A DNA stretch of 64,000 nt, from assembly GCA_050291745.1 (NCBI GenBank), contig JBNKKI010000120.1, positions 4,397 to 68,396 of the forward strand, read 5' to 3'. The translations under genes and the position numbers were made by a program. Source of the DNA: Gammaproteobacteria bacterium. GTDB taxonomy: Bacteria; Pseudomonadota; Gammaproteobacteria; GCA-001735895. Position 1 is the stretch's first letter, and each line of letters begins with the position of its first letter. The notes below the pieces were generated by a model. That model saw only the letters and a program-made list of their open reading frames with translations, was not told where the DNA came from and did not search any database. Shown here one piece after another: positions 4,514 to 58,330 of the stretch.

Positions 4514-4525
4514 GGTTGGATCTCC

Positions 4526-7995: not shown

Positions 7996-8058
7996 GCAAT
8001 GGCTACATTTGGCGTAGCGGAAATTTTTTTTAGTTTTTTCTTCCTGGGTGGTCCCGGG

Positions 8059-10939: not shown

Positions 10940-10972
10940 GTCGATCTCCTTATTGTTCGCGACCCTGCATCG

Positions 10973-11206
10973 TTATTCGGGCCTCCTGATGACGACGATG
11001 CTTCGGGCCTTACGAGCTTCTTTCTTCAAATAGCCTTTACGGACCAGTTGAGCGATCTGCTCGTGGGCGCTCGCGTGACTGATACCGAGGACTTCCGACA
11101 ATTCTTTCACCGTTGGCGGCAACCCCTTTTCATCGATGATTTGGCAAATGACCCTCAGCGTCCTGGCCTGCGGGTCGGTTATTTCCGATAGCTTTTTCTT
11201 TCCCAT
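10973..11206 (-). CDS. Stand-alone LexA-like winged-helix DNA-binding protein (77 aa, no peptidase domain)
   Basis: The sequence MGKKKLSEITDPQARTLRVICQIIDEKGLPPTVKELSEVLGISHASAHEQIAQLVRKGYLKK resembles the LexA N-terminal DNA-binding domain (LexA has ...[32 protein letters not shown]). GGAG lies about 8 nt upstream of the ATG. Confidence 0.6.
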   Translation of the reverse strand: MGKKKLSEITDPQARTLRVICQIIDEKGLPPTVKELSEVLGISHASAHEQIAQLVRKGYLKKEARKARSIVVIRRPE

Positions 11207-11262
11207 GGCGATTGCTCCGTGTCATGGCCACTGAGCGGATTAGGCCCATCTTATGGTTAAAA

Positions 11263-11291
11263 AATATACGACCTGATGAATATCAGGTCAA
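11263..11291 (-). promoter_or_regulatory. Near-consensus sigma-70 promoter (TTGACC, 17-bp spacer, TATATT) with an embedded perfect palindrome GACCTGATgaatATCAGGTC (11270..11289), a putative operator
   Basis: The minus strand reads TTGACCtgatattcatcaggtcgTATATT, about 55 nt upstream of the wHTH start codon. The 8-4-8 perfect inverted repeat overlaps the -35 element and the spacer, which is the expected position for an autoregulatory operator. Confidence 0.55.
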
Positions 11292-11779
11292 TCAAAAAAA
11301 CAGGACTTTTCATCTGATTCCGTCATCTTGCACGTCCCTCCGGTAGGTAACGAACGCAAGTCCGGTTAAAGCCGGGCACAACCAGATAACCGACCAGAGG
11401 CGGAGCTGAGGCGGTTGTGGGTGCCATCGAACGCGCATCCCGACCCCCACCGTTTTCTGGCATCCACACCATCCAGTCCCCCGGTCCCACCGGAGGTGTT
11501 CGATGTTGGATGTACAGGAAATGAATGATGGGCCGGGGACGGATGACCTTGGCGAAAACGGCAAACCCGGCCGCCTGTCGGGTGAGGCGAGGCTCCAGTC
11601 AGCCGCCTCCATTCTGGCCACTGCGATCCTGCGCCGAAAGGCCAAAAAAGCATGTGGAGGCAGTGAGTTAGAGATTTTCGAAGATTCTTCCCCTGTGCTC
11701 AGAGAAGGACTTGATTCATTGCCGGAACAGAGCATTCATTCATGACAACTCGTCCGGAAACCAAAATAAGGAGTTGAAA

Positions 11780-12304
11780 ATGAATGAGTTACAAAATGCC
11801 GCCACGGGCGGCAAGAATCAGGACCGAACCCGAAACTCGGTCCTTCGGCAGATGGCCCTGCTGCAATCCATGTCCCTGGAGCAGCTCCGGGAAAAATGGC
11901 TCGACCTCTACGGCGAAGAGCCGCCCCAGTACAAGAAACAATTCCTCATCAAGCGGCTGGCCTATCGCATCCAGGAGCTTTTCTACGGTGGGCTGTCCGA
12001 GCAGACCAAGGTCCATCTCCAGCAGGCCGCCAAGGAGGACCCGGTCGCAACTGTCAATCGACGCATCCCAGAGGAGCGGAAATCAAACGAGGCGATCCTG
12101 CCCGGGACCAGACTGGTGCGGATATGGAACGACCGGCGCTATGAGGTGATCGTTCTTGCCGATGGCTACGAGTTCGAAGGCCGCACCTTCCGGTCGCTCA
12201 GCGCGGTGGCCAGGGAGATCACCGGGACGCGCTGGAACGGGAAAGTCTTTTTCGGACTGAAGAAGGTTTACGGCAGAAAAGCCGATGGAGGTTCGGATGC
12301 TTGA
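11780..12304 (+). CDS. DUF2924-like serine-recombinase accessory protein
   Basis: Translation starts at MNELQNAATGG (11780), after an AAGGAG Shine-Dalgarno sequence. The C-terminus (RLVRIWNDRRYEVIVLADGYEFEGRTFRSLSAVAREITGTRWNGKVFFGL) resembles the DUF2924 family that typically precedes large serine recombinases. The gene overlaps the recombinase start by 20 nt. Confidence 0.55.
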   Translation: MNELQNAATGGKNQDRTRNSVLRQMALLQSMSLEQLREKWLDLYGEEPPQYKKQFLIKRLAYRIQELFYGGLSEQTKVHLQQAAKEDPVATVNRRIPEERKSNEAILPGTRLVRIWNDRRYEVIVLADGYEFEGRTFRSLSAVAREITGTRWNGKVFFGLKKVYGRKADGGSDA

Positions 12305-13883
12305 TAACAGCAATGTCGCGCCGGGCAAAAACAAGACCCTGCGCTGTGCCATCTACACCCGCAAGAGCCACGAAGAAGGTCTCGAACAGGAGTTCAACTC
12401 GTTGGATGCGCAACGGGAATCGGCGGAACACTATATCGAAGCCCAGAGGATGCGTGGCTGGACGGCTCTGCCGGATCGCTACGACGATGGGGGTTTCTCG
12501 GGCGGGAACATGGAGCGTCCGGGGCTGCGCCGCCTGCTGGCGGACATCGACGCCGGGAAGATCGATGTGATCGTCGTCTACAAGGTCGACCGGCTGTCCC
12601 GCTCGCTGCTGGACTTCATGAAGATGATCGACCTCTTCAACGAGAAGGGTGTCAGCTTCGTCTCGGTCACCCAGCACTTCAGCACCACCGATCCCACCGG
12701 CCGGATGTTTCTCGGCATCCTGATCACCTTCGCCCAGTACGAGCGGGAGGTCATCGCCGAACGCATCCGGGACAAGGTGGCGGCTGCCAAGCGCCGGGGG
12801 AAATACTGCGGCGGCGTACCCATCCTCGGATACGACGTCAACCGGGACAACAAGAAGCTGCTGGTCAACCCAGATGAAGCCAGGACGGTGCAGTACATTT
12901 TCCGCCGGTTCATCCAGATCGGCTCGGCCAAGAAGCTGGGCCAGGAATTGAACGAACAGGGTTACCGCACCAAGGCCTGGACCACCAAGAAAGGCAAGGT
13001 GCGCGAGGGCTCCGAATGGAACACCGCCCACATCTATCGACTGCTAAACAACCGGATCTATATCGGCGAGATCGCCCACAAGGACCGCAGCTACCCCGGT
13101 GAGCACGAAGGGATTATCGACCGGGCGACCTGGGACAAGGTTCAGGCCATCCTGGAGGACAACAAACCGGTCAAGGTTTCCATGGCCAGAACCAAAATGG
13201 TCGCCCCGCTGAAAGGCGTCATCCGATGCGGCCACTGCGGATGCGCGATGGGACCGACCTACGCCCGCAAGAACGGCCGCCACTACACCTATTACATCTG
13301 CCAGAAAGACAGCAAGCGGACCGTGAGCCGGTGCCCGCTCAAACGGATTCCCGCCGGGGACATCGAGCAGGCGGTAATCGAGCAGTTGAGCGCGGTGTTT
13401 CGCACACCGACGCTGGTGGCCAAGACTTACTTCGCGGCCCGGGACATCGAGCAGGCAGAGCGGGAGCGGTTGTTCAAGCAGAAAGCCCAGCTCGAGATGG
13501 AGCTGTCGCAGGCACGGGAGCAGGCACTTGAACTGATGAAACCTGGCAACGATCAGCCGGGCAAGACCGAGATGCTGACTACGGTCAATCGCCAGGCGGT
13601 CGAGCTCACGAAACAACTGACCCATGTGAGCGAGCGATGCAGAGCCTACCAGGGGAACAGCATCACGGAGCAGGATGTGTCGGAGGCCTTCCAGAATGTC
13701 GAGGGCTTCTGGGAAGATCTTTTCCCGGTGGAGCGAAACCGGCTCATCCGCCTCCTGGTGGATAAGGTCGAGATCCGCGAGACCGGAATTGACATGGAGC
13801 TGCGCACCAACGGGCTGACAACGCTCATCGCCGAGCTGGCTGGTCTGGCATGCGAAGTCACCGAACGGAGGGCAAGCCGATGA
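12285..13883 (+). CDS. Large serine recombinase (integrase): resolvase catalytic domain, recombinase domain and zinc ribbon
   Basis: The N-terminal resolvase domain reads LRCAIYTRKSHEEGLEQEFNSLDAQRESAEHYIEAQ...IDVIVVYKVDRLSRSLLDFMKMIDLFNEKGVSFVSVTQ (Ser nucleophile in YTRKS). A recombinase domain and a zinc ribbon (RCGHCGCAMGPTYARKNGRHYTYYICQ...RCPLKRIPA) follow, then a C-terminal coiled-coil. The length is 532 aa. Confidence 0.85.
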   Translation: MEVRMLDNSNVAPGKNKTLRCAIYTRKSHEEGLEQEFNSLDAQRESAEHYIEAQRMRGWTALPDRYDDGGFSGGNMERPGLRRLLADIDAGKIDVIVVYKVDRLSRSLLDFMKMIDLFNEKGVSFVSVTQHFSTTDPTGRMFLGILITFAQYEREVIAERIRDKVAAAKRRGKYCGGVPILGYDVNRDNKKLLVNPDEARTVQYIFRRFIQIGSAKKLGQELNEQGYRTKAWTTKKGKVREGSEWNTAHIYRLLNNRIYIGEIAHKDRSYPGEHEGIIDRATWDKVQAILEDNKPVKVSMARTKMVAPLKGVIRCGHCGCAMGPTYARKNGRHYTYYICQKDSKRTVSRCPLKRIPAGDIEQAVIEQLSAVFRTPTLVAKTYFAARDIEQAERERLFKQKAQLEMELSQAREQALELMKPGNDQPGKTEMLTTVNRQAVELTKQLTHVSERCRAYQGNSITEQDVSEAFQNVEGFWEDLFPVERNRLIRLLVDKVEIRETGIDMELRTNGLTTLIAELAGLACEVTERRASR

Positions 13884-14302
13884 AAATGAAGCCGACCATT
13901 ACCGTTGCCGACAACGGCAACCTGCAGATCCACATCCCGATGCTGATCCGGCGCATGCGCGGCCGCAAGACGGTCATCGCTCCCCAGGCCCTGGATGGAG
14001 AAATCACCGGAGCGCAGGAACCGGTGCAGTCTGCCATCCTCCAGGCGCTGGGAAGAGCCTTTTCCTGGGCCGACATCCTCGAATCCGGCCAGATCAAGTC
14101 CATCAGCGAGCTTGCCCGTACCCTTGACGTCGATGGCTCGTATGTGGCCCGCATTCTCAAGCTGACGACCCTGGCCCCCGACATCATCGAAGCCCTGATC
14201 AACGGCGAGGAACCCAACGGGCTCTCGCTGGCCAAGCTGACCCAGACCTTCCCCGAGGACTGGGCCGAGCAGCGCAGCCAGTTCGGCTTCGCCACCGACT
14301 GA
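13880..14302 (+). CDS. HTH-containing hypothetical protein, the third gene of the recombinase module
   Basis: The start MKMKPTITV overlaps the recombinase stop (ATGA). A putative HTH is SISELARTLDVDGSYVARILKLTTL. A terminator follows. Confidence 0.5.
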   Translation: MKMKPTITVADNGNLQIHIPMLIRRMRGRKTVIAPQALDGEITGAQEPVQSAILQALGRAFSWADILESGQIKSISELARTLDVDGSYVARILKLTTLAPDIIEALINGEEPNGLSLAKLTQTFPEDWAEQRSQFGFATD

Positions 14303-15097: not shown

Positions 15098-15278
15098 AGA
15101 GATTCGATAGTATAATCCATTTATCTGGATTTATACTACCATTTACGCAATATTTGACAGTTTCTTGCTGTTTTAGTTCTGATATTGTTGCTGATGAATG
15201 GTGCTTTCCGTTATTATTCCGCTCGCTATTATTAAGCCTTTGCACCTTTGCCATTCATCTTACTTATTAATCTATCCC

Positions 15279-18200
15279 ATGATCTGTATAAAAGGTAGTC
15301 CTGCTTTATCTGATTTTAGAATTCAGAAACTTTTAAGTGCCGTTAAACCTTTCGGCGTAATTCAAATAACCAGTCATTATATTCATTTTATTGAAACTCT
15401 TCATGAGCTTGCTGATGATCAGCTTTCAATTGTGAAAAATCTGTTGCAATACGGGCCTAAGCTCAAGGATCGGCAGCTTGATGGCGAAACTTTTTATGCT
15501 GTGCCTCGTGTGGGTACGATTTCTCCCTGGTCTACCAAAGCGACTGATATTGCCCATATCTGTGGGCTACAGGATATTGCTCGTATCGAGAGAGGCATTG
15601 AATATAAAGTTCAATTCGACAGTGATGTTTCTTCTGTATCTCAATCTGTTGAACAGGTAAAACTGTTGTTACACGATAAAATGGTTGAACAGGTTTTTAA
15701 TACTGTCGATGAATGTGAAGCATTATTCGATCATCACCAACCCAAACCTTTGACTGTTGTCGATATTTTACAGGGTGGTAAACCACAACTTGAAGCCGCT
15801 AATATTGAATTAGGCCTGGCTTTATCTGATGATGAAATCGATTATCTGGTGGATAGTTATGTCGGTCTTCAACGTAATCCTAGCGATGTGGAGTTGATGA
15901 TGTTTGCGCAGGCGAATTCTGAGCATTGTCGCCATAAAGTGTTTAATGCGGACTGGACTATTGATGGGGAGGATATGGATGCGTCGCTATTTGGCATGAT
16001 TAAGAATACTTACAAAATGCATTCTGAGGGTATTCTGTCTGCCTATCATGATAATTCTGCCGTTATTGAAGGTTTTCCTGCTCATCGATTTGCACCACAG
16101 CTTGAATCAGGCATTTATCAGGATGATATGACACGTCTGGATATTTTGATGAAAGTTGAAACCCATAACCATCCAACTGCAATTTCTCCTTTTCCCGGAG
16201 CTGCTACCGGTTCCGGTGGTGAAATTCGTGATGAAGGGGCAACAGGCAGGGGATCTAAACCTAAAGCTGGATTGTGCGGATTTTCTGTTTCCAATTTGAA
16301 TTTACCTGAACTTTCTCAACCCTGGGAAAAGGATTATGGTAAACCTGACCGTATTGTTTCAGCACTGGATATTATGATTGAAGGGCCGTTGGGTGCTGCG
16401 GCTTTTAATAATGAATTTGGCCGTCCTAATATCTGTGGATATTTTCGTACTTACCAGCAAACCATAAAAACCAGAGATGGAGAAGAAGTTCGTGGCTATC
16501 ATAAACCAATTATGCTGGCTGGCGGCGTAGGTTCTATCAAGCCGGAGCATATTGATAAACTCGAAATTCCTGCTGGTAGTAATATTATTGTGCTGGGTGG
16601 GCCAGCGATGTTGATTGGTCTGGGTGGTGGTGCGGCTTCTTCTATGACCAGTGGCAGTAGCTCGGAAAATCTTGATTTTGCTTCTGTGCAACGCGGTAAT
16701 CCGGAAATGGAACGTCGGGTGCAGGAAGTTATAGATCGTTGTTTTGCACAATCTGAAAATAATCCAATCATTTCTATCCACGATGTTGGGGCCGGTGGTT
16801 TGTCAAATGCATTACCTGAACTGGTGAATGACTGTGGCATGGGTGCGCAACTTGATTTGCGTAAAATACCTAATGATGAACCGGGTATGTCTCCCAGAGA
16901 AATCTGGTGTAATGAAAGTCAGGAACGTTATGTACTTGCTGTTTCTGATGAGAGACTGGATGATTTTATTCAATTATGTAATCGCGAAAGATGCCCTTAT
17001 GCGGTTCTCGGTAAAGCGACCGATGAAAAGCAGTTAGTCGTATCTGATGAAGTATTTGGTAATAATCCGGTTGATATGCCGTTGGATATTTTGCTTGGTA
17101 AACCCCCTAAAATGCACCGTGATGTGCAACATCAGCAAGTTGTTCAGGATGTTTTTGATACTTCCTCTATCGATATCAAAGAAGCTATTCATCGGGTTTT
17201 ACAAAATCCGACTGTGGCAGATAAAACTTTTTTAATTACGATTGGTGACCGCTCAGTAGGTGGTTTGATTGCCCGTGATCAAATGGTTGGCCCGTGGCAG
17301 GTTCCGGTGGCAGATGTTGCAGTCACGCTGACTGATTTTGAAGGTTATACCGGTGAAGCCATGAGTATGGGAGAAAGAACACCACTGGCTTTACTGGATG
17401 CACCTGCTTCTGGACGTATGGCGATTGGCGAAGCTTTAACTAATCTTGCAGCCAGTTACACCAGAGATTTATCTCGTGTTGTCCTGTCGGCTAACTGGAT
17501 GGCAGCGGCGGGTCATGAAGGTGAAGATGCCCGTTTATTTGATACCGTAAAAACGGTGGGTATGGAAGTCTGTCCACAACTGGGAATTACCATTCCAGTA
17601 GGTAAAGATTCTCTATCGATGAAAACAGTGTGGCAGTCTGAGGGTGAAAATAAATCTGTTACCGGCCCGCTATCTTTAATCATATCTGCTTTTGCACCTG
17701 TTTATGATGTGCGTAAGTCAGTAACTGCTGAACTTTCAGCTGATCAGGATAGTGCTTTATTTTTATTTGATCTAGGACAGGGTAAGAATCGCCTGGGCGC
17801 ATCTGTACTGGCGCAGGTTTACTCTCAAATCGGTCAACAGGGACCGGATATGGATGATGTGGCCGTATTTCATAATTTCTATCTGGCAGTACAGGAAATG
17901 CTGGAAAATGATTATTTACTGGCTTATCACGATCGTTCTGATGGCGGTCTTATTGCCACACTTTGTGAAATGGCTTTTGCCGGTAGAAGCGGATTAACTG
18001 TTGATCTGAAAGAACTGGGGTCAAACCCTGCTGAAGCTTTGTTTAATGAAGAACTGGGAGCCGTTATTCAGGTTGCTAACAATCATATTGAAGGTCTCAA
18101 GCTCATTATCGATAAATTTAATTTGAATCATTGTGTTCACCAGATCGGTCAACTCAATGATTCAGATGAAGTCATTGTTTTAAATAATGATGAAAAAATC

Positions 18201-19166
18201 TTTAGTGAATCTATAAGCAGTCTGAGACGCAGTTGGTCGTTGACGACCTATCACATGCAAAAGCTACGTGATAATCCTGACTGCGCTAAAGAGGAATATG
18301 ATTCCATTCTGGAAAATGCTAAACCATCTTTATTTTCCGAATTAACTTACCAGACGGATGAAGACCCGGCTGCTCCCTATATTAATAGTGGTGCAAAACC
18401 TCGCATTGCGGTACTTAGAGAACAGGGTGTTAATGGGCAGGTAGAAATGGCAGCCGCTTTTACTAAGGCAGGTTTTGAAGCGGTTGACGTGCATATGAGT
18501 GATTTACTTAATGGGCAGACTGACTTACAGGATTTCCGTGGAATTGCAGCCTGTGGCGGATTTTCCTATGGAGATGTACTGGGAGCCGGTGAAGGCTGGG
18601 CCAAATCTATTCTTTATAATAGTAAAGCTTACGATATGTTTTCTGCCTTCTTTGATCGATCTGACAGTTTTGGTTTAGGGGTTTGTAATGGCTGCCAGAT
18701 GTTGTCAAATTTGCATAGTATTATTCCCGGTGCAGACAAATGGCCGCATTTTGTTAGAAATAAATCAGAGCAATATGAAGCCAGAGTATCCATGGTTGAA
18801 ATAATGCAATCAGATTCAATATTTTTTCAGGGAATGCAGGGTTCCAGAATGCCTATCGTAGTCGCTCATGGAGAAGGGCAGGTTGAATTCAGAACTGAAA
18901 ATGCCGCACAGTTACTACAGGATCAAACCGCTTGTGTACGTTTTATCGATCGAAATAGTCAGCCTACTGAAATATATCCTGCTAACCCCAATGGTTCTTC
19001 TGAAGGGCTTACGGGCTTTACCAGTAGCAATGGAAGATTCACTATCATGATGCCACATCCGGAAAGAGTTTTTCGTGCTGTTCAAAACTCATGGCAGGCT
19101 AGTGATTGGGGTGAAGATAGCCCGTGGATGCGTATGTTCAGGAATGCCCGAGTCTGGGTTGATTAA
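15279..19166 (+). CDS. purL: Phosphoribosylformylglycinamidine synthase (single-chain large PurL)
   Basis: The start [19 protein letters not shown] matches the E. coli PurL N-terminus ([20 protein letters not shown]), and the length of about 1295 aa is that of the single-chain FGAM synthase family. The upstream 27 codons of the listed ORF are rejected. Confidence 0.9.
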
Positions 19167-20550: not shown

Positions 20551-20604
20551 TGCTACTCTAAAGTAAGCCCTGATAAATAATTATCCTGGATTGCGTAGTT
20601 GAAC

Positions 20605-20837
20605 CTAGATTCTGCAGTTGACCGCTCGCAATAGAGATTAACCCACTGTTTCATAAACGATTACAATTGATGTGTATAATCACCCAATCGGTGAATCCCG
20701 CTACGAACTGAATTGTACATTTGAGGCGACCTATCTCTTCGTTGTAACGCCCTGGAATAGCTGGCTATTGCGCGTCGTTACGCCTTGATTTACACCACTT
20801 CAAACGCACAATCAACTCGTCCAACTGTGGATTCTAG
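20605..20837. mobile_element. MITE family 1, copy A (233 bp), with imperfect terminal inverted repeats cctagattcYRcagttg
   Basis: The left end is ctagattctgcagttgaccgctcgcaatagag and the right end is caactgtggattctag. It is about 90% identical to the copy at 40969..41202. The internal core is tgtataatcacccaatcggtgaatcccgctacgaactgaattg...cgtcgttacgccttgat.tacaccac.tcaaacgcaca. Its terminal CTAG supplies the TAG stop codon of the adjacent XRE gene. Confidence 0.7.
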
Positions 20838-21442
20838 GATTCTTCATGATTTTGCAATGTTTTAGCCAGATCAAGTAGTAAGGTTTTTGATTCTGCTTTC
20901 ATATTTGAAAATATCATCATGATTTCTCGCAAATCATCAGGGAAAAAATTACTTAAGCCATCGTTTTCGATATGCTGTTCATCCATCCAGCCATCTCTTT
21001 TTTCCAGAGATGCTTCCACTGAACTTGCCAGTTGGTCATCAATTTCCAGGAATGGATTATTGATATATTCAAATAATATTTTTCTGGGTAAATTAATACG
21101 AATAGTAAAATTAGTTAGCTCTGTTTCAGTTAAATTTTCAAGTATTTGGGCAAGATTCTGATGGCGGATCGCTTGCTTGTCTCTTTTTGTTGAGCGAATA
21201 CTGCCTATTCCAAAACTAATCCAGCATGGATTGGTTTCAGTTAATTTTGCGATCTGTTTTATATCCAGCGGATTAGGTAATGAAGTACCGTTTTCATAAT
21301 TTCCCAGGCGGCTTTCACTCCAACCATCTATAAGGCTGGTTAAAGATGACAGTGTTTTAAATCCAGCCATTTTTCGAGCCTGTCGAATTCTATTACCAAC
21401 GATTTTTTTAAATTCGACTAATTGTTCTGATTTATTTTTCAT
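20834..21442 (-). CDS. XRE-family HTH transcriptional regulator with a C-terminal domain of unknown function
   Basis: The N-terminal HTH_3-like segment is IVGNRIRQARKMAGFKTLSSLTSL...LGNYENGTSLPNPLDIKQIAKL. The protein is 202 aa. Confidence 0.6.
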   Translation of the reverse strand: MKNKSEQLVEFKKIVGNRIRQARKMAGFKTLSSLTSLIDGWSESRLGNYENGTSLPNPLDIKQIAKLTETNPCWISFGIGSIRSTKRDKQAIRHQNLAQILENLTETELTNFTIRINLPRKILFEYINNPFLEIDDQLASSVEASLEKRDGWMDEQHIENDGLSNFFPDDLREIMMIFSNMKAESKTLLLDLAKTLQNHEES

Positions 21443-22246: not shown

Positions 22247-22556
22247 CTAAAAAAATCAGTTGACCGCTCCATTCTAGTAACAGGTTTCTGATTTTGAAGA
22301 AAATAGCTTCGATAGTTATGGTCACCCACTGGGTGAGTTACGCTACAACGTGAATGGCACGCTGTCCAACTGATCTTTTTAGGTTGATGAGTATAATCAC
22401 CCAATCGGTGAATCCCGCTCGAACTGAATTGCAGGTTTGAGGTGGCGTATCTCTTCGTTGCAACGCCCTGGAATAGCTGGCTATTCCGCATCGTTACGCC
22501 TTGATCTATACCACCTCAAACGCACAATCAACTCGTCCAACTGAGGATTCCAGGTT
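22247..22556. mobile_element. Composite or nested MITE: a family-2-type terminus (aaaaatcagttga) fused to family-1 sequence, an extra internal segment, then a full family-1 core
   Basis: It starts aaaaatcagttgaccgctcc, contains a second terminus-like caactgatcttttt, then gatgagtataatcacccaatcggtgaatcccgctcgaactgaattgcaggtttgaggtggcgtatctcttcgttgcaacgccctggaatagctggctattccgcatcgttacgccttgatctataccacctcaaacgcacaatcaactcgtccaactgaggattccagg. Confidence 0.55.
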
Positions 22557-34060: not shown

Positions 34061-35071
34061 TCAAGCTTCAATAATTCCGCAAAGAGAAGTCACTAACTGC
34101 GAAAGTGCAAGCCAGTCAGCATCCACATAGAGAGGAAATTGCTGACCTTTATTAATACGGTCTAATGTAGCACAGCTTTGCAAAAATCGCTCTAGTTGCA
34201 AATTAGAAAGCCGGGATAAGGCATGAGAATAAAGCTTTTGCTTAGTTTGCCAGATTCTCAGGGATTGCCAGGTAGAAGCATTTAATTGATTATTTGTCTG
34301 AGCATGCTTTAACTGTAGTAATGTTTCAATAGTATTTTGTAAAGCATATTGAATTTGAATTGGCTGAAACCCTTCCAGCCGCAATCCCTGTAATATTTTT
34401 ACCGCTCGTTTATTTTGTCCTGCTAAACAGGCATCAACCAGTAAATAATGGGTGTAACGTGAACTTCGGGAAATACTTTCATTAATTTGTTGAAGATTTA
34501 AAGAAGCATTCGGTTCAAAGGCTAAGGCCAGTTTTTCTAGTTCCTGATCAGTAGCTAATAAATTACCTTCAGTCAAATCTGCCAGATACAACGCAGCCTG
34601 ATGATCAAGACTAATTCCTTTCGTTAAAGCCCGTTGACTCACCCAGCTGGCAAGTTGATTGGCATAAACTGGTTTAAGCTCAACGACTTCACCGGCTTTA
34701 TTAATTTTTTTTAACCAGGCACTGTTTTTAGAAGCCATATCAAGCTTTGGCATCACCAGAATAAAAACCATATCCTCTGGTTGTAACTCACAAAGCTGGG
34801 CAATATATTTTGCACCAACCTGTCCAGGTTTATTACTCGCAAAGCGCAACACCTGACATTTTTTCTCACTAAACAAGGATAAACTTTGACTATCTTCCAG
34901 TAATCCATTCCAGTCAAAACCTGACTCAACCTGATGACTGATAAATTCTTCAAAGCCTGATTCCTTTAATGTCTTACGCGCATCATCCAGCCATTCTCGA
35001 ATCAATAGAGGCTCATCGCTAGACAATAAATAAACTGATCTTGCAGAAGTTTTTAAAGATGCCGGTAACAT
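34061..35071 (-). CDS. holA: DNA polymerase III delta subunit
   Basis: About 336 aa from the internal start MLPASLKTSARSVYLLSSDEPLLI... (E. coli HolA is 343 aa). It occupies the conserved lptE-holA-nadD position. Confidence 0.7.
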   Translation of the reverse strand: MLPASLKTSARSVYLLSSDEPLLIREWLDDARKTLKESGFEEFISHQVESGFDWNGLLEDSQSLSLFSEKKCQVLRFASNKPGQVGAKYIAQLCELQPEDMVFILVMPKLDMASKNSAWLKKINKAGEVVELKPVYANQLASWVSQRALTKGISLDHQAALYLADLTEGNLLATDQELEKLALAFEPNASLNLQQINESISRSSRYTHYLLVDACLAGQNKRAVKILQGLRLEGFQPIQIQYALQNTIETLLQLKHAQTNNQLNASTWQSLRIWQTKQKLYSHALSRLSNLQLERFLQSCATLDRINKGQQFPLYVDADWLALSQLVTSLCGIIEA

Positions 35072-35213
35072 AGGTTTAAAAGTTAAATTATTATAGTCCT
35101 GATTTAATCTCAGACAATTCAGGTTTTCTAATACGGTAATCAGGATCAAAACCCTGTTAAACAGGAAAAGTCACCCTGAAATTTTGGCTAAAATGCTTTA
35201 TATAAAAGGCATA

Positions 35214-35431
35214 ATCCTGGAAAAATCAGTTGAGCGTGTAAAAGATGCGTAACAAATTGATGCGCCTGGTCTAAGTCATGGATGACTGTCGTTAGAGCAA
35301 TGCAGGAGCAATTGCCGAGAAATCAAAAACACCGTAGTCACCTGATTGGTGAAGAGTGTGTTTTTGATTTTATCAGCTGCATTAAGGTGTTACCTGGACT
35401 TTCATGATTCAACTAATTTTTCCAGGATAAT
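35214..35431. mobile_element. MITE family 2 copy, inverted relative to the 54171 copy, with terminal inverted repeats atcctggaaaaatYagttga
   Basis: The left end is atcctggaaaaatcagttgagcgtg and the right end is tcaactaatttttccaggat. The interior is the reverse complement of the 54171..54391 copy (for example gtcacctgattggtgaagagtgtgtttttgatttt). Confidence 0.65.
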
Positions 35432-36049
35432 GCTAACACAGACTGTGTAGATCTGGCATGACAAGTTATTGATTTTCTCAGAAAAGAAGAATTTTGAAGT
35501 GCACAAAAAGAAAAACCTTCAGCCATTTCTGGCTGAAGGTCAATACTCTGCTGGTATTCCCTATATAGCAGCTTCCTGCAAGGCATCCATCCTGATACGA
35601 AAGAATCCATTCATGCTCATCGAGCAATTTCATCCATTAATTTCGTATTCCATTTGTTTAATCCCTTTAAACATACTTATATAATAGTCCTATAAAAATA
35701 AATAAACAGGTAACAATAACGACAGATTACGTACGACATAACAGACCCGTTATGTAGGACATCACCTACAAGTTTACATATCCCCATAAAAAAACCCTTA
35801 ATCCTAAGAAAAAGGGTTTAAAGAGCATACCGAATGTTACTGGTAATTTTAAAAGTATCCCTGGAGGTCATCCAACCTCAAATAGTCACAAATCCCTGTA
35901 TCTAATTTTCCTTTAGTCCAAATCCTGTGGACAAGACATATATTAATGAACCTGCTTTTAATAAAATACCTTATATCTCGACCAGGTTTGAAAGAAAACA
36001 TAGATAGCATTTATAGGATTTCTCCTACATTTGAGATTACCCGGCAAAA

Positions 36050-37261
36050 TTAGATTTCGCGTAAACCATCAGAGGGCTCAATACGAGAGGCTCGAATACC
36101 TCCTAGAATCGCTGCTGCTGCAGCAACAAACATGGTCAACCCTAAAGCCCAGAAGAAATGTTGGGGTAGTAAATAACAAATAACCTGCTCTATTTCCAGA
36201 TTAGGGGCCAGTAACTGATTTATGGTTTGCTCAGCAATCAGATAAATTAATACGGCAAGCAACCAGCCAAGTATCCCTGTATATAAAGACTGCAATACGG
36301 GAAATAATATAATCTTGCCTCCCTGAAAACCGACCAGACGGAGAATACTCAAGTCCTTACGTTTACGGTCTACATTGGCCCACAAACTGGCACCAAGAGA
36401 AAAAGAAAAACCTACCGCTCCTACACAGGCAATTATCCAGAAAATAATACTGAGATTTCGATCGATGGATTGAACAGTTTTGATTTCTGCAATATTGGCC
36501 TTTACATTAATTCCTTTCTGCTCCAGTTCATTCACCAGGTTTTCGACATCTACAATTGAACGGGCATACATTCTGAAAGCAGGATAATTTCTTTTAGCTG
36601 AATCATTTTTATCACCAGTCCAGTTCAGCTCAGATACAGCTCGGCCATCTTTGAAACTTTCTGTTGCCAATAACATCTCAAGACTTACAAAAGCAACACT
36701 TCTGCTAATAATATTTGGTGGTGCTACATCAATTACCTGTAAATCGATATGCACACGCTCTCTTTTTCCTTTGAATTGCCTTACAAGACTGCCATCAAGC
36801 CTGTCTCCTTTAGCAATATTAAGTTTTTTAGCGATACTGTCACTGAGAATAACCTGATAGTAGCCCTGAGGTTTTATTTTTATTGATTGTAAAAGGGGGT
36901 CTTTATCAGCTGTTGCAAATAATTCGGTGGAAAAAATACGTCCGGCATTTTTACTTTTAAGCTGGATGGTGGCAGCCAGAGATCTTGTTTTGGGTATGAT
37001 AAAGGCAACATCTTCACGCTTTGAAAATTCATCAAACCAAACCTGCTCATATTGACCACTACCTACTGCCCGGATTTCCCTGTTAGAGGGATTTTCGATC
37101 AACCCGGATATCATAGAACTAACAATGCCAAACTTTAAGCCAAACAGAATCATCATGGGAGCCAGAACAGAAGCGAGAGCCAGTACAAAGCAACCGGACA
37201 TTCTCCATTCATGACTGTAATCTCTAAAGCTTAAGCTAATAATTTTATTAAACTGACTCAT
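36050..37261 (-). CDS. ABC transporter permease, FtsX/MacB/LolC-type (one N-terminal TM, a periplasmic domain, three C-terminal TMs)
   Basis: 403 aa. The TM helices flank a periplasmic domain of about 230 aa, which is the MacB-type topology. It follows an ABC ATPase gene. Confidence 0.7.
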   Translation of the reverse strand: MSQFNKIISLSFRDYSHEWRMSGCFVLALASVLAPMMILFGLKFGIVSSMISGLIENPSNREIRAVGSGQYEQVWFDEFSKREDVAFIIPKTRSLAATIQLKSKNAGRIFSTELFATADKDPLLQSIKIKPQGYYQVILSDSIAKKLNIAKGDRLDGSLVRQFKGKRERVHIDLQVIDVAPPNIISRSVAFVSLEMLLATESFKDGRAVSELNWTGDKNDSAKRNYPAFRMYARSIVDVENLVNELEQKGINVKANIAEIKTVQSIDRNLSIIFWIIACVGAVGFSFSLGASLWANVDRKRKDLSILRLVGFQGGKIILFPVLQSLYTGILGWLLAVLIYLIAEQTINQLLAPNLEIEQVICYLLPQHFFWALGLTMFVAAAAAILGGIRASRIEPSDGLREI

Positions 37262-37275
37262 AAATAACAGTAGGG

Positions 37276-38001
37276 TTAATCTTTAAAGGTAGATTGATAA
37301 ACATTGCCATTTTCAAGCACTTCTGCTTCCTGATGTAAACTACGTAAATCCATTTTATAGACATGTGCCCAGTCATGACTTGCGGTAACCATCGTTATCT
37401 TCAAACCTTTAACCAGCTCCATGACTACTGCCATAATTTTCCGTGCAGTTATTGGGTCAAGAGAAGCCGTTGGCTCATCGGCCAGTAAAATAGTCGGGCG
37501 ATGAGATAAGGCGCGGGTAAATGCCACCCGTTGACGTTCACCAGCTGATAATAAACCGGGTAATTTATCCAGTTGGCGATGAATCCCCATCACTCTGGCT
37601 ATAGAACGGGTTGAATCATCTTCCGGCATATTCATTAGTTTGCGAGGAAGCTCAATATTTTCACGAACCGTCAGATAAGGTAATAATCCACCCTGCTGCA
37701 ACACATAACCGATATGTTGTTTGCGAATTTTTGCCAGTGCATTCTGCTTTTTCTTTTGCCATAGAGCATCAATACTGAATTCTTCCTGATCATTGGCCAT
37801 TAATGAAAATTGATCAGATGAATCAGGATGTAGAGCCAGTGCCAACATATCCAGTAAGGTACTTTTGCCACATCCACTATGACCGACTAAAGCCACATTT
37901 TCCTGAGCCTTTATTTCTACCGAAGGGATAACCAGACGAAATCCAGCGCCATCAACTAAGCGAGATTTCACTACATTTTTGAGTGAATAAACAACCGACA
38001 T
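37276..38001 (-). CDS. ABC transporter ATP-binding protein
   Basis: 241 aa with Walker A GHSGCGKST, ABC signature LSAGERQRV and Walker B ILLADEPTASLD. Confidence 0.85.
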   Translation of the reverse strand: MSVVYSLKNVVKSRLVDGAGFRLVIPSVEIKAQENVALVGHSGCGKSTLLDMLALALHPDSSDQFSLMANDQEEFSIDALWQKKKQNALAKIRKQHIGYVLQQGGLLPYLTVRENIELPRKLMNMPEDDSTRSIARVMGIHRQLDKLPGLLSAGERQRVAFTRALSHRPTILLADEPTASLDPITARKIMAVVMELVKGLKITMVTASHDWAHVYKMDLRSLHQEAEVLENGNVYQSTFKD

Positions 38002-38052
38002 GACAATTTTTTAAGTTAAAAATTTTAAGTACAAAAAGCGCTCAAAATTTAA

Positions 38053-40113
38053 TTAGGGTAACAAATCCAGTGCAACAGGAAACATTGAATTTCCATTAAC
38101 AGAGCCTCCACCCGGTGTGACCCAAAGGTCGGTATGGTCATGTAAAGCCTGATAATAATTTATTTTACTTTCCAGACGATGCATGAATTCAATCTGTTCC
38201 TTGGCAGACCATTCTTCCCAATTAGCCAGGCTCAGGTTCATCACTTCGCCTGTATAAGGCAAATCATCAATGTACTCGCGCATATAGCCCAGATCAGCCA
38301 GATTACCACCTTCACTGGAAATATTCCCGGATACAGCACCCGGATCACGACTTACTGTTGCAGCAAGACTTTTTAAATCATTTAAAAATCCAGAGGGTGT
38401 AAGCACTCCCTCTTCCGCTAACTCAAGAACCTGCTGCATAACTGATTTTAAGTCGGAAAGCTGGTCACGTGTTAACAGGACTCGTACGTCAACTAATGAT
38501 TTTTGCGGATCACTGAAATCTCGATCAATCATCCAGGCATCAAAAACTTTAGGCAAAGGCTTCCCGGCCTCTTTCTGTAAATAGCGCAATCTTAGAGCAT
38601 TGCCCAGTTTTGCTACTCGAGACTGTAACTGAGCCAATTGACTCTTATCAGCGGGCTCCTGAACAGGCTGTTGCTTAATATCTGATTGAGGTGATTGCTG
38701 TGCTATTTCCTGTTGTTCAGGTATTGGCAAAGGTAATACGCCATTAATTGTTGCTAGAACCTGTTGAGTGATTTGATTAGCCAGCACTTCTAATACATTA
38801 CCGAACTCATCTACCTTACCAAGCTCCACGCCATAGTAAAAATCACCAATGCCTGGATAGAAAGATAATTTTTTATAGTATTTTTCAGCTCTTTGATGGT
38901 TGGCGGCTGGAGAATCAGATCGTAAGTGTAATACCCAGATGGAAATACCTTTATCATAAGCTAATTGTCTTAAGGCCTGAGCACTTAAACGGGTTGCTCC
39001 TAGAGAATCATCACTTTCCCTCGGACCCGCATCAGTAATTAATACGACATAACGGGCATCAAAATTATTCCAGTTAGTATTTTCTATTGCGGCTTTGATT
39101 CCTGCGTAGGCATCTTCCCGATAATCACGACTGGAAACGGAAGATGGTTCAAGCGTATTAACCCGTGAAAAGAATTCATCAGAGTCACCTCCTTGCTCCA
39201 GATTAACGAATGTGCGTGTCAGATAATCCAGTTCAGGTACCTGATCCACATTATCTCTAAAAGCAGTTAAGCCAAAATTTACCTGATTATTTAACCCTTG
39301 TCTGGCAATTGAAGCATAAACCTTGCGTACTGCTTCTCGTGTACGATCAATATAAGGTCCCATAGAAATGGTAGAATCTATAACAAAATGAATACCACTA
39401 CGATATTGACGATTCGGTGAGTCAAGCTGCTGTTGTGTATCAGAGGTTACAGTCGTGTTACTGCTTGTTTGACTGTCAATTGTTTGAGTTGATGTAATCT
39501 GATCCTGACCATCACTTAAAGGAACACTCGCTATCTGTAATAGACGAGCCTGCTCATTACCAAGATAAACGTCTTCATGTTGTTTTATCGGTACCAGATA
39601 AAAATTATTATGAATATCGACATGTGCCTCTGGTTGAATGGCTATCACAGGGTTATTGACCACCTCTTCATTATTAACCAGTTTATTATAAAGTGTGGCA
39701 TAAGCTTCCTGATCGTAATCATCTACCATTTTCTGCAGATTTGCCTTTTCTCCAAACATCAACACCCTTTGTGTATCCTGCGGGTCCTTGAAAGAAACAG
39801 TTAATGCCTGATTCCACACAATAGATTGATCTGCGGGAATCCACCCTGAAATTTTACCGAAACTGTCATGCCCGACTTCCAGCCAGTCTTTCTTTTTACT
39901 ATAAACATAAAACACGCTAAAAGGGATAATATCTTTTGAGCTGGATTTTTTATCAGCCTGACTAAATAGTCTAGCATCAGGAATGCTTAACACTCTCTGG
40001 AATAATGATTTTTTCCCTTCCATTAACAAAGGTTTCTGTATAGCCCAGCTATTAACCGAAAATAACAATACAACAGTGAATAATAGACGCAGAAAAGGGG
40101 TGTTCATAAACAT
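38053..40113 (-). CDS. Secreted vWA-domain protein (686 aa)
   Basis: It has a signal peptide (MFMNTPFLRLLFTVVLLFSVNSWA). A vWA-like segment carries a MIDAS-type DxTxS motif (FVIDSTISMGPY...LTAF...VVLITDAGPRE). Confidence 0.6.
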   Translation of the reverse strand: MFMNTPFLRLLFTVVLLFSVNSWAIQKPLLMEGKKSLFQRVLSIPDARLFSQADKKSSSKDIIPFSVFYVYSKKKDWLEVGHDSFGKISGWIPADQSIVWNQALTVSFKDPQDTQRVLMFGEKANLQKMVDDYDQEAYATLYNKLVNNEEVVNNPVIAIQPEAHVDIHNNFYLVPIKQHEDVYLGNEQARLLQIASVPLSDGQDQITSTQTIDSQTSSNTTVTSDTQQQLDSPNRQYRSGIHFVIDSTISMGPYIDRTREAVRKVYASIARQGLNNQVNFGLTAFRDNVDQVPELDYLTRTFVNLEQGGDSDEFFSRVNTLEPSSVSSRDYREDAYAGIKAAIENTNWNNFDARYVVLITDAGPRESDDSLGATRLSAQALRQLAYDKGISIWVLHLRSDSPAANHQRAEKYYKKLSFYPGIGDFYYGVELGKVDEFGNVLEVLANQITQQVLATINGVLPLPIPEQQEIAQQSPQSDIKQQPVQEPADKSQLAQLQSRVAKLGNALRLRYLQKEAGKPLPKVFDAWMIDRDFSDPQKSLVDVRVLLTRDQLSDLKSVMQQVLELAEEGVLTPSGFLNDLKSLAATVSRDPGAVSGNISSEGGNLADLGYMREYIDDLPYTGEVMNLSLANWEEWSAKEQIEFMHRLESKINYYQALHDHTDLWVTPGGGSVNGNSMFPVALDLLP

Positions 40114-40118
40114 TCCGG

Positions 40119-40718
40119 TTAATTAAAATTTAACAGCAACTGCTGAGCTTCGACATTACCAAACCTTGCTTCGGCTATTGCCCATTGATAGAGATTATCC
40201 AGTCTTGGTTTAGCCGGTTCAAAACCACTATCCAGTGCTTGCCGGTACCACTTGTAAGCCTGTATAGCATCAGCCTGATCGAGTAAATTATTTTCAGACT
40301 GGAACATAGTAGGATCACTCATTTCTGCCATCATCATCATGGCTTCAACATGTCCTTCTTTAGCTGCAAAGAAAAAAGTTAAATGCGCATCAGCCAAACT
40401 ACCTTCATTTGCATAAGACGAAGCTTTGGCCATCAATTCGTCAAATGGATAAGGCTTACCCTTTTGCCGAATCTGATCAATATACTCTCGTGCTCGTAAC
40501 CCCGGTGGTACCAGTAAATCACGATTAATCTGTCCTTCGGCACCGTCGGCAGTTAACTCAGAATTGCTCCGGGCATCATCCATCTGTAAGTCTTTTTTTG
40601 TCACAGACCCACGGTCAGACAGTAAAAATATGACAATGATAAGACCAATTACAACAATCGAGACCCAGATAAGCGGGTTAGTCCTAGAGGAATCCTGTTC
40701 TTTTTCTGCTTGCACCAT
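40119..40718 (-). CDS. Membrane-anchored Sel1/TPR-like repeat protein (199 aa)
   Basis: It has one N-terminal TM segment (LIWVSIVVIGLIIVIFLL) and Sel1-like repeats (AYKWYRQALDSG...). Confidence 0.5.
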   Translation of the reverse strand: MVQAEKEQDSSRTNPLIWVSIVVIGLIIVIFLLSDRGSVTKKDLQMDDARSNSELTADGAEGQINRDLLVPPGLRAREYIDQIRQKGKPYPFDELMAKASSYANEGSLADAHLTFFFAAKEGHVEAMMMMAEMSDPTMFQSENNLLDQADAIQAYKWYRQALDSGFEPAKPRLDNLYQWAIAEARFGNVEAQQLLLNFN

Positions 40719-40822
40719 ACCAATCTGGTTTTTTATTATTCGTTAGTTCCGGACGCAGTATCGTGCATGACAGAAATCATTTTGGCAAGAGCTACAACCT
40801 AAGTTTTAAAAATTTAACCCGG

Positions 40823-40955
40823 AAAAATCAGTTAAGCATAAAAAGAGGCTTAACGGTTTAAACCAGCAATCGCCATAGTGACGGTTGCATGGACAAAGGA
40901 AGTGTAGTTATTGTCTGAAACAAACAATTGCCTTTCATGGTTCAACTGATTTTGC
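40823..40955. mobile_element. Short, degenerate MITE family 2-like element (about 133 bp)
   Basis: Its termini are aaaaatcagttaa ... ttcaactgattttg. It lies directly beside MITE family 1 copy B. Confidence 0.4.
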
Positions 40956-40968
40956 CAGCTTTATCATC

Positions 40969-41202
40969 CTAGATTCCGCAGTTGACCGCTCGCAATAGAG
41001 GTTAACCGACTGTTTCATAAAGTATGACAGTTGATCTGTATAATCACCCAATCGGTGAATCCCGCTACGAACTGAATTGCACTTTTGAGGCGGCGTATCT
41101 CTTCGTTGTAAATCCTTGGAATAGCTCGCTATTCCGCGTCGTTACGCCTTGATCTACACCACCTCAAACGCACACTTCAATTCGTCCAACTGCGGATTCT
41201 AG
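40969..41202. mobile_element. MITE family 1, copy B (234 bp)
   Basis: The left end is ctagattccgcagttgaccgctcgcaatagag and the right end is caactgcggattctag, a near-perfect 16-bp terminal inverted repeat. It ends 2 bp from the lptE stop codon. Confidence 0.7.
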
Positions 41203-41204
41203 GA

Positions 41205-41696
41205 TCATCGACTTAACTGGGAAATCATACTTTGCATTAACCTTCTCAGTAGTCTTTTCTCTGCAGTATTGATGGTTTGCTCCTGAGCCAGTAAATTCGT
41301 CTTATCCAGTTGAACACTCGCTCTTTGCTGTAACTCACGTTGCGATAATAATTCTTTCCCGGTTTCTGATTGCACACTGAATTGTAATCCTAGCGTTAAT
41401 TGCACCAGTTCAACATCGGCAACATCTGAACTGGCGACATCCCGTCTATTGAGTGGCGCAATAGTGACCAACAGCTGATTAGCACCTTTGCTATTCTCTG
41501 TTAATTCTGCAGATGAATTAACCAGCTCTTTTCGTAATAAAGAAAGCTGCTCAGAACTGAGATTATTATTTACAACAAATAAAGGATTGTATCGGTTTGC
41601 TATTTGAGAACTACCACGTAAATGAAAGCCGCAGGCTGTCAGCTGCAATGCTAGCAGCATAGTTAAAAACAGCCTGCTGGATTTAATTAAGGTCAT
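41205..41696 (-). CDS. lptE: LPS-assembly lipoprotein LptE
   Basis: 163 aa. It has a lipoprotein signal with a lipobox (LQLTAC) followed by GFHLRG, and occupies the conserved position immediately downstream of leuS. Confidence 0.75.
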   Translation of the reverse strand: MTLIKSSRLFLTMLLALQLTACGFHLRGSSQIANRYNPLFVVNNNLSSEQLSLLRKELVNSSAELTENSKGANQLLVTIAPLNRRDVASSDVADVELVQLTLGLQFSVQSETGKELLSQRELQQRASVQLDKTNLLAQEQTINTAEKRLLRRLMQSMISQLSR

Positions 41697-54170: not shown

Positions 54171-54391
54171 TTGAACCTAGAAAAATCAGTTGAATCATGA
54201 AAGTCTACGTAACACCTTAATGCACCTGATAAAATCAAAAACACACTCTTCACCAATCAGGTGACCACGGTGTTTTTGATATTCCGGCAATTGCTCCTGC
54301 ATTGCTCTAACTACAGCCATCCCTGGCTTAGACCAGGCAGATCAATCTGTTACGCATCTTTTTCACGCTCAACTGATTTTTCTAGGTTGAA
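54171..54391. mobile_element. MITE family 2, full copy (221 bp), with 23-bp terminal inverted repeats TTSAACCTAGAAAAATCAGTTGA
   Basis: The left end is ttgaacctagaaaaatcagttga and the right end is tcaactgatttttctaggttgaa (22 of 23 complementary). The interior contains an 11-bp stem atcaaaaacac...gtgtttttgat. Confidence 0.7.
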
Positions 54392-54606
54392 ACCTCTCGG
54401 ATTTGGGAAATATCTACTCTGGAAAAGGCTGTTTATCTGATTTTTAGTCAATGAAGTCTTTCTCTCAAGAAAAATGAATCTAAGCATAGCAATTCCCAGC
54501 TTTAAGAAAAAATTTACTGGCTAAATAAACAACTATTGATAAACTTCTAAGCCTTTTATCTCATCTAAACAAACCAGAATAAATTAATAATCAGAAATCG
54601 ATAGGT

Positions 54607-58196: not shown

Positions 58197-58330
58197 TTAA
58201 ACCTAGAAAAATCAGTTGAATCATGAAAGTCTACGTAACACCTTAATGCAGCTGATAAAATCAAAAACACGCTCTTCACCAATCAGGTGACTTCGGTGTT
58301 TTTGATTTCTCGGCAATTGCTCCTGCATTA
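58197..58330. mobile_element. MITE family 2, truncated copy (about 130 bp)
   Basis: It starts acctagaaaaatcagttgaatcatgaaagtctacgtaacaccttaatgca... identical in pattern to the 54171 copy, but lacks the right half. Confidence 0.55.

Follow-up and report, generated by a model that had tools for sequence, protein, structure and literature searches.

The question raised by this locus is what a block of four genes does between lptE and holA, in an array (leuS, lptE, holA) that is contiguous in E. coli K-12 and is interrupted here. The DNA analysed (the window) is a stretch of 64,000 nucleotides from Gammaproteobacteria bacterium (GenBank assembly GCA_050291745.1, contig JBNKKI010000120.1, positions 4,397 to 68,396 of the forward strand), and coordinates given below refer to it unless another locus is named. 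A preliminary description, made from the sequence without database searches, had noted the interruption relative to Enterobacteriaceae and four tightly spaced genes on one strand, and both observations were borne out: the list of open reading frames (ORFs) of the window places four minus-strand ORFs between lptE and holA, with gaps of 5–51 nt. They are as follows.

40119..40718, minus strand: transmembrane (TM)-Sel1 protein, 199 amino acids, a bitopic inner-membrane protein
38053..40113, minus strand: vWA protein with a metal-ion-dependent adhesion site (MIDAS), 686 amino acids, periplasmic, three domains (gene callers place the start at 40107, which gives 684 amino acids)
37276..38001, minus strand: ATP-binding cassette (ABC) ATPase of TagT type, 241 amino acids (Pfam ABC_tran, E 1e-25)
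36050..37261, minus strand: type VII (MacB/LolCE-fold) ABC permease of TagS type, 403 amino acids (Pfam FtsX, E 1e-7)

This combination, which had been described as matching no named system, was found to be homologous to the module formed by TagT, TagS and PpkA's periplasmic domain in the threonine phosphorylation pathway. The operon probably encodes a variant of this module that is kinase-less, TagR-less, putatively TagQ-less and Sel1-anchored, and that serves ATP-driven envelope sensing. Of the functions listed in the preliminary description, vWA-based signalling comes closest to this homology, and export of an adhesin, a toxin or a bacteriocin found no support.

In Pseudomonas aeruginosa, TagTS-PpkA senses envelope damage and switches on the H1 type VI secretion system (T6SS) via the threonine phosphorylation pathway (TagQRST-PpkA-Fha1-PppA). 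The pathway is triggered by incoming attack from a T6SS or a type IV secretion system, by polymyxin, by chelators and by defects in outer-membrane biogenesis, and both TagR (an FGE-sulfatase protein) and TagQ are required for it. TagS, TagT and TagR are assigned to COG4591, COG1136 and COG1262, respectively, in a review (PMC13584744), and the sensor domain of PpkA contains a vWA domain (PMC3224232). Envelope insults that elicit a response of the TagQRST-PpkA pathway in P. aeruginosa include knock-down of bamA, lptD and tolB, the nature of the signal being unknown, and in genetic terms the homologous ABC pair is a signalling component placed upstream of PpkA (PMC7817224).

It was metagenomic T6SS loci sharing this gene order that provided the link to the T6SS. 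Two relatives of the window vWA protein that are fused to a kinase carry this link. P0164 lies in a locus (L017) with the order Fha-TssJ-TssK-TssL-TssM-TagF-PppA-PpkA, and because of this T6SS gene neighbourhood it is a genuine PpkA; P0137 lies in a second locus (L019) with the order TagF-PpkA-ABC-FtsX-FGE-sulfatase, which is the order ppkA-tagT-tagS-tagR. Residues 27–686 of the window vWA protein align with residues 413–1028 of P0164 (33% identity, E 3e-112). Over its full length the window ATPase is 48% identical to the ABC ATPase beside PpkA in L019 (E 2e-68), and the window permease, likewise over its full length, is 42% identical to the L019 permease (E 4e-84) and 43% identical to the permease of a further locus, L020. 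The trio of vWA protein, ABC ATPase and FtsX-type permease aligns full length across T6SS-linked, split, Srf-linked and bare contexts.

The split context is that of L020, in which a 420-residue protein with kinase, TM and Sel1 parts (L020:3-1265) is followed by a stand-alone secreted vWA protein (L020:1473-3524), an ABC ATPase, an FtsX-type permease and a TagR-like FGE-sulfatase protein. That PpkA is divided into these two proteins points to a possible interaction of the Sel1 domain with the vWA protein.

The window operon and TagT-TagS-PpkA thus have in common an ABC ATPase, one LolCE-like permease and a vWA-containing periplasmic region of ~650 residues, encoded by genes that lie side by side; identity to the representatives from T6SS loci is 33–48%. 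The window form differs from PpkA in that its vWA protein has neither a kinase domain nor a TM segment, a small TM-Sel1 protein being present instead. It differs from the P. aeruginosa module in that there is no TagR, the operon encodes no lipoprotein, and no T6SS, Fha, PppA or TagF gene lies nearby; and unlike the T6SS-linked module it sits among housekeeping genes, with leuS-lptE on one side and holA-proA on the other. By tblastn, no kinase was found in the 64-kb window, and queries with the Fha, TssJ, TssK, TssL, TssM, TagF and PppA proteins of L017 gave no match there. Homologues of the TagR-like proteins of L019, L020 and L103 (a plasmid locus described below) were found neither in the window nor in the flanks of ~95 kinase-less loci; no search was made for TagQ. 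The flanks of a more distant set of metagenomic loci (tier 2, below) were likewise without homologues of the T6SS core, Fha, PppA, TagF, SrfABC, SUMF1 or the kinase. A literature search found no description of TagTS outside the T6SS and nothing relevant on the combination of vWA, FtsX and Sel1 proteins.

The vWA protein begins with a Sec signal peptide without a lipobox, followed by an N-terminal beta-rich domain (~28–200), a disordered linker (202–233), the vWA/MIDAS domain (239–456) and a C-terminal helical domain (489–686). Its MIDAS motif is D246-S-T248-I-S250 (DxTxS); in a family alignment of 65 sequences D246 and D361 are invariant and S250 is conserved in at least 90%. The AlphaFold2 model (predicted local distance difference test (pLDDT) 85.6, predicted template-modelling score 0.84) has a vWA domain whose structural matches are integrin I-domains and the vWA domains of pilus adhesins. 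The secreted 686-residue MIDAS protein proposed earlier was therefore upheld by alignment and model alike. The structural examination of its C-terminal half that had been suggested gave a modelled helical domain and no match to a known fold: when the model was compared with PDB and BFVD by Foldseek, the vWA domain was the only part recognised and neither terminal domain matched a known fold, and a PDB sequence search with the protein returned nothing useful. In single-sequence Pfam and NCBIfam searches of the operon the vWA domain fell below the cut-off, and otherwise only the generic names FtsX and ABC_tran were obtained; Pfam gave no Pkinase match for the vWA protein, which has no TM segment and is secreted as a separate protein.

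By exhaustive HMMER search, the full-length relatives of the vWA protein fall into 1302 clusters (50% identity). The majority are 640–700 residues long and stand alone, some are ~1000 residues long with an N-terminal Ser/Thr kinase, and some are fused to AAA_22; several members are called PpkA in Joint Genome Institute annotation. A fusion of the last kind is P0124 (L018:667-3792), whose vWA module is 47% identical to the window protein and follows an N-terminal AAA_22/AAA_16 ATPase; a fragment of an ABC ATPase lies on the opposite strand of L018, at the contig end. Across the family the C-terminal proline P686 is invariant, and the C-terminal domain carries a conserved LPY motif (residues 618–620; P619 and Y620 invariant, L618 in at least 90%). 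P686 and the LPY motif may be docking elements.

The 199-residue protein consists of a cytoplasmic tail of ~15 residues, a TM helix (16–34), a variable linker and a conserved periplasmic domain of ~130 residues with three Sel1-like repeats. A Pfam search with the single sequence gave no match, and a profile built from 42 family sequences matched solved Sel1-repeat proteins in PDB (E 6e-12); profile and TM helix together agree with the Sel1-repeat membrane protein of the preliminary description. The protein shares 31% identity (E 4e-13) with the C-terminal periplasmic tail of the Ser/Thr kinase-TM-Sel1 protein of L020, and hhalign aligned it with the equivalent protein of an SrfABC-linked cluster at a probability of 98.8%. 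The family has 593 members, of which the best 120 are all 190–250 residues long and none has a kinase. The protein is read as a putative membrane anchor or partner of the vWA protein.

The motifs of the ATPase, read from the sequence, are intact (Walker A GHSGCGKS, signature LSAGE, Walker B ILLADE, H-loop SHD), and no NCBIfam equivalog cut-off was reached (LolD model, 121 bits against 308). The permease has four TM helices, with a periplasmic domain of ~200 residues between TM1 and TM2. Its AlphaFold model (pLDDT 77.9, built with database homologues) best matches LolE/LolC (Foldseek, E 1e-16), then YtrF and MacB, and its PDB sequence matches include LolF and LolC. It remained below the NCBIfam cut-offs of lolCE (34.3 bits against 362) and MacB (91 bits against 966), and FtsX models matched it only at E above 0.001, far short of their cut-offs. 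An ABC ATPase with a permease of MacB/LolC topology, as had been proposed, is consistent with the ABC_tran and FtsX matches, the four TM helices and the model; the question posed with that proposal, whether the permease is LolC-like or MacB-like, was answered by LolE/LolC as the closest match, with MacB after it.

Comparison with characterised transporters of this kind gave the following. LolCDE and LolDF share with the window pair the type VII ABC permease fold (a periplasmic Porter/Sabre domain) and a separate ATPase subunit, but the LolC/E and LolD equivalog cut-offs are missed widely by the window proteins; LolCDE has two permease genes where the window has one, the window operon has no linked lipoprotein cargo, LolA or LolB, and its pair, unlike LolCDE or LolDF, is accompanied by vWA and Sel1 proteins. 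FtsEX-EnvC is alike by analogy of function only, being a type VII ABC system in which the ATP cycle is believed to work on a protein of the periplasm and not on a transported substrate; there is no orthology between the sequences, the periplasmic domain of the window permease is larger (Porter plus Sabre-like, as in LolC and MacB), and the partner of FtsEX is a coiled-coil LytM factor whereas that in the window is a vWA protein. MacAB-TolC differs in that no adaptor or outer-membrane factor gene accompanies the window operon and the MacB equivalog score is far under its cut-off. The absence of a visible periplasmic adaptor, already remarked upon in the preliminary description, was confirmed: neither the operon nor the 10 kb on either side of it contains a gene for a membrane-fusion adaptor or outer-membrane factor, and no LolA/LolB-like gene lies near it.

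A third context of the same genes is the SrfABC-linked cluster, found in alpha- and gammaproteobacteria with the order (serine protease)-srfA-srfB-srfC-Sel1-vWA-ABC-FtsX-SUMF1/FGE. The loci collected (L102, L103, L104 and L105) include a Haematospirillum plasmid and a Cereibacter plasmid, and the cluster is present on 114 Klebsiella plasmid records; L103 is the Klebsiella pneumoniae plasmid NZ_CP138739.1, on which the cluster adjoins a tellurite-resistance gene. Homology to the TagQRST-PpkA sensor genes extends over the last five genes of the cluster. A September 2026 preprint (10.64898/2026.09.18.752743) describes a ‘Lol-like ABC, vWA, SUMF1’ cassette beside srfABC and makes no connection to TagQRST. 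The SrfABC-linked cassette (Klebsiella plasmids, Haematospirillum, Cereibacter, Haemophilus, Xenorhabdus) has the order Sel1-vWA-ABC-FtsX in common with the window operon, with full-length homology at 26–40% identity. It differs in the additional srfA, srfB and srfC genes upstream and SUMF1/FGE downstream, and in being often plasmid-borne; tblastn with the Klebsiella SrfA, SrfB, SrfC and SUMF1 proteins gave no match in the window. Its Sel1 protein (~340 residues) has a cytoplasmic N-domain of about 110–175 residues, a TM helix and the Sel1 domain, whereas the cytoplasmic part of the window Sel1 protein is only ~15 residues long. The cytoplasmic domains joined to the Sel1 or the vWA component thus vary between a kinase, a domain of 110–170 residues and an AAA_22 ATPase. 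Exchangeable domains of this sort are the pattern of a predicted sensor with variable outputs.

The age of the operon at the lptE-holA site was assessed from relatives gathered through the vWA gene, so that all counts are of sampled carriers; the metagenome scan used a vWA alignment of 10 sequences, the alignment of 65 being too diverse. In 46 related loci the four genes are at the same site (vWA identity 63–82%, G+C content (GC) 39–63%). Fourteen of these are derived from genomes of uncultured Gammaproteobacteria, including the Gamma 3 endosymbiont of Olavius algarvensis (GC 39–53%), and have the order lnt-leuS-lptE-Sel1-vWA-ABC-FtsX-holA-proA; the other 32 are metagenomic (vWA identity 63–75%) and have the same order wherever flanks are present. 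The spacer between lptE and the Sel1 gene is ~70–130 nt long in the relatives. Identity of leuS falls as low as 55–66% in the related loci, and the operon identities track those of leuS and proA (L003, leuS 84% and vWA 80%; L013, leuS 66% and vWA 67%). In the genome-derived loci the identities are 69–90% for the ATPase, 65–88% for the permease and 67–82% for the vWA protein, against only 26–49% for lptE. GC of the four window genes is 0.38–0.45 and matches that of the flanks.

Because the position is conserved, the identities co-vary, GC is host-like and the orthologous loci are free of the transposable elements described below, the four genes are regarded as an old resident: a vertically inherited operon whose place between lptE and holA predates the divergence of a deep clade of uncultured marine and symbiotic Gammaproteobacteria. 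The preliminary description had taken them for an accessory cassette inserted between lptE and holA. This is contradicted by the identical order in all 46 related loci with readable flanks, by host-like GC and by conservation of the operon above that of lptE; among the sampled carriers, the genes stand at this locus in the relatives too, the very observation that the preliminary description had set against its own proposal. The comparison of gene neighbourhoods that it suggested showed the four genes co-occurring both at a conserved locus and as an autonomous unit elsewhere. The latter is the case in 48 metagenomic loci (tier 2; vWA identity 47–53%), in which Sel1, vWA, ABC and FtsX genes are together in varied housekeeping flanks without leuS, lptE or holA; clustering of all neighbouring ORFs gave no fifth conserved partner in these loci.

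Both spacers of the operon contain miniature inverted-repeat transposable elements (MITEs), as follows.

35216..35426, no strand assigned: copy of MITE family A, with terminal inverted repeats of ~20 nt and an ATAAT duplication on both sides, between the terminator of a candidate small RNA (sRNA, below) and holA
40823..40958 (approximate), no strand assigned: short variant of MITE family A, with the same terminal inverted repeats and a different interior
40968..41203, no strand assigned: copy of MITE family B, with terminal inverted repeats and an ATCAT duplication on both sides

Further copies of family A lie at 54176–54395 and 58202–58329 (three to four in total) and of family B at 20604–20839 and 22383–22554 (three in total); the target duplications of family A are ATAAT and TTCAA. 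Both families have the attributes of MITEs, namely a length of 130–240 bp, terminal inverted repeats, target-site duplication, several copies and no ORF, and in this respect the preliminary description was right about both spacers. It had also taken the MITEs for the boundaries of a cassette, and this did not hold: the outer flanks of the operon carry family A on one side and family B on the other, and blastn found neither family at the orthologous position in relatives, one unrelated partial match of family B in L063 being the only hit. Since two different families are involved and both are missing from the orthologous loci, the MITEs are read as later, private insertions into both spacers. 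Family B sits exactly at the lptE stop, where its right ATCAT duplicate overlaps the TGA codon (41205–41207) and leaves the stop codon intact; the short family A copy lies only 9 nt from the family B copy. The arrangement suggests that this spacer was struck repeatedly by MITEs. As a practical caution, MITE-filled spacers are not to be taken as cassette boundaries.

A mechanism can be proposed for a kinase-less TagTS module with a periplasmic vWA protein. LolCDE, FtsEX-EnvC and MacB are type VII ABC systems, and serve here as the analogy for mechanotransmission. The ATPase and a homodimer of the permease would form a type VII mechanotransmission complex by which no substrate is pumped out of the cell, and ATP hydrolysis would alter the state of the periplasmic vWA protein. 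The Sel1 anchor would hold the vWA protein at the inner membrane, a divalent cation at the MIDAS site would mediate binding of an acidic ligand or partner, and the assembly would report or correct a perturbation of the outer membrane or periplasm. Because the cytoplasmic output has shrunk to a tail of ~15 residues, the effect would be exerted inside the envelope or via a partner encoded elsewhere.

Several points weigh against this reading. The kinase-less form is known from sequences and models alone, the mechanotransmission step is drawn by analogy with solved type VII ABC systems, and the 64-kb window has no homologue of TagR although TagR is required in P. aeruginosa. The link itself was drawn through metagenomic T6SS loci rather than the P. 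aeruginosa proteins. Sampling by the vWA gene would miss relatives that had lost the operon. The lptE/lnt neighbourhood is weakly compatible with an envelope role, and the adjacency is a weak case of guilt by association, since tier 2 lineages keep the operon elsewhere.

Other explanations were weighed against envelope sensing. A dedicated Lol-like trafficking system, in which the ATPase and a homodimeric LolF-like permease would hand an envelope protein or lipoprotein from the inner towards the outer membrane, with the Sel1 and vWA proteins as chaperone or receptor, would account for LolE and LolC of LolCDE complexes as the best structural matches of the permease (E 1e-16) and for LolF and LolC among its PDB sequence matches. 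It is nevertheless rather unlikely, given an operon that encodes no lipoprotein, a vWA signal peptide without a lipobox, no LolA/LolB-like gene near, a lolCE equivalog score of only 34 bits against 362, and a homologous T6SS pair that is genetically a signalling component upstream of PpkA (PMC7817224). A sensor with an unlinked output, in which Sel1-vWA-TagTS would activate a kinase, a T6SS or an effector encoded elsewhere, draws on the homologous Sel1 or vWA parts that are fused to a Ser/Thr kinase (L017, L019, L020), to AAA_22 (P0124) or to another cytoplasmic domain. Such an arrangement is unlikely: no kinase, PP2C, FHA or T6SS gene is present in the sequenced flanks of ~95 kinase-less loci, no long protein is among the best 120 members of the Sel1-anchor family, and the operon is conserved above its housekeeping neighbours without a visible partner.

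A role in anti-phage or inter-bacterial conflict, built on the vWA protein and the ABC-type ATPase, appears very improbable. Domains of vWA type and ABC-type ATPases are known from several defence systems, PADLOC returned generic ATPase-model matches for the ATPase, and the homologue in L102 lies beside a type I restriction-modification system; against this, PADLOC gave no match for the vWA, Sel1 and permease proteins, all parts other than the ATPase are periplasmic or membrane-bound, and a fixed core position with strong purifying conservation is atypical of defence islands. Least probable of all is a recent MITE-bounded accessory cassette that exports or remodels a vWA adhesin, a toxin or a bacteriocin by a MacB-type pump. 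MITEs in both spacers, the contiguous leuS-lptE-holA of E. coli and the MacB/LolC topology of the permease are what it would explain, and it is at odds with the same site in 46/46 related loci with flanks, with MITEs of two families that are missing in relatives, with host-like GC, with the lack of an adaptor, TolC-like or candidate cargo gene, and with bacteriocin and MacB models far under their cut-offs.

Beyond envelope sensing by this variant of the TagTS-PpkA module, a wider history is put forward tentatively, as a possibility on the doubtful side. The vWA-TagT-TagS trio would be an ancient, self-sufficient machine for envelope integrity, acting in sensing or repair, that reads outer-membrane, lipopolysaccharide or divalent-cation status via the MIDAS site. 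It would later have been recruited as an input by the T6SS (through kinase fusion) and by SrfABC (with a kinase-like SrfA), and the bare form beside lptE would be the ancestral, housekeeping one, with no phosphorylation output.

The operon is bordered by the following features, and a further conserved element lies in the spacer between permease and holA.

41205..41696, minus strand: lptE, upstream flank (Pfam LptE, E 5.6e-5, above the curated cut-off)
35795..35822, minus strand: probable operon terminator, a hairpin and T-run read from the sequence
35753..35770, no strand assigned: palindrome resembling a GacA/UvrY box, TGTAGGACATCACCTACA (TGTAGG-N6-CCTACA), upstream of the sRNA
35500..35655, minus strand: candidate Csr/Rsm-type sRNA, ~155 nt, with 7 GGA motifs, ending in a strong intrinsic terminator at 35514–35541
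34061..35071, minus strand: holA, downstream flank (NCBIfam holA, E 6e-74; 336-residue gene call in L001)

Upstream, leuS accompanies lptE; downstream, proA, nadD, rsfS, rlmH, maf, rng and yhdP accompany holA, whose maximal ORF reaches 35149. The hairpin and T-run at 35795–35822 lie ~230 nt past the permease stop codon, are also kept in L003 (by alignment), and are probably the terminator of the four-gene operon.

The spacer RNA is probably the product of a Csr/Rsm-type sRNA gene of a new family, a neighbour of the operon. Its terminator has a stem of 12 bp, and compensatory changes are seen both there and in the 5' hairpin. With a covariance model of four sequences, exactly one copy was found between permease and holA in each of 25 loci belonging to the lptE-holA lineage, and none in six of the loci with 47–53% vWA identity. 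The orthologues carry 5–8 GGA motifs, against 1.5–3.8 expected, and a palindrome TGTA[AG]G-N6-C[CT]TACA is present at about the same distance upstream in 21/25 loci; the consensus TGTAAGN6CTTACA occurs in PMC11837529, and background on GGA motifs and the palindrome is given in PMC2375449. With CsrB, RsmY and RsmZ the RNA shares a length of ~150 nt, multiple GGA motifs, an intrinsic terminator and the upstream GacA/UvrY-box-like palindrome. It differs from them in having no Rfam family (best match GibS, 21 bits against a threshold of 115), and its binding by CsrA/RsmA and dependence on GacA are predictions from sequence. The ~600 bp of AT-rich non-coding DNA of the preliminary description is therefore not empty, the conserved candidate sRNA gene and the palindrome lying within it. 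An ORF of 65 codons at 35413–35610 was not accepted as a gene, since it continues past the terminator and into the MITE and since indels of 1–3 nt distinguish the orthologous spacers.

Elsewhere in the window, positions 1–14300 have a GC of 0.55–0.64, against ~0.40 in the remainder, and encode a large serine recombinase (12285–13883), a RecD2-like helicase, an AAA_24 protein, a PD-(D/E)XK nuclease and a QueC-like protein, beside purL (15198–19166). Either foreign DNA (an element or the remnant of a prophage) has integrated here, or the part was joined on in assembly or binning. Reckoned from the coordinates, the 90,975-bp NCBI contig for the region would stop close to window position 22141, next to copies of MITE family B.

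For the family, the T6SS sensor is tied here to the srfABC-adjacent cassette of many Klebsiella plasmids, apparently for the first time in the literature searched. Because the trio of vWA protein, TagT and TagS occurs far outside T6SS loci, because its cytoplasmic domains are exchangeable, and because the kinase-less form is kept more strictly than lptE in the deep marine and symbiotic clade, we argue that the trio would have a T6SS-independent core activity in the envelope. The operon between lptE and holA offers a minimal, four-protein version of this sensor for structural and genetic work.

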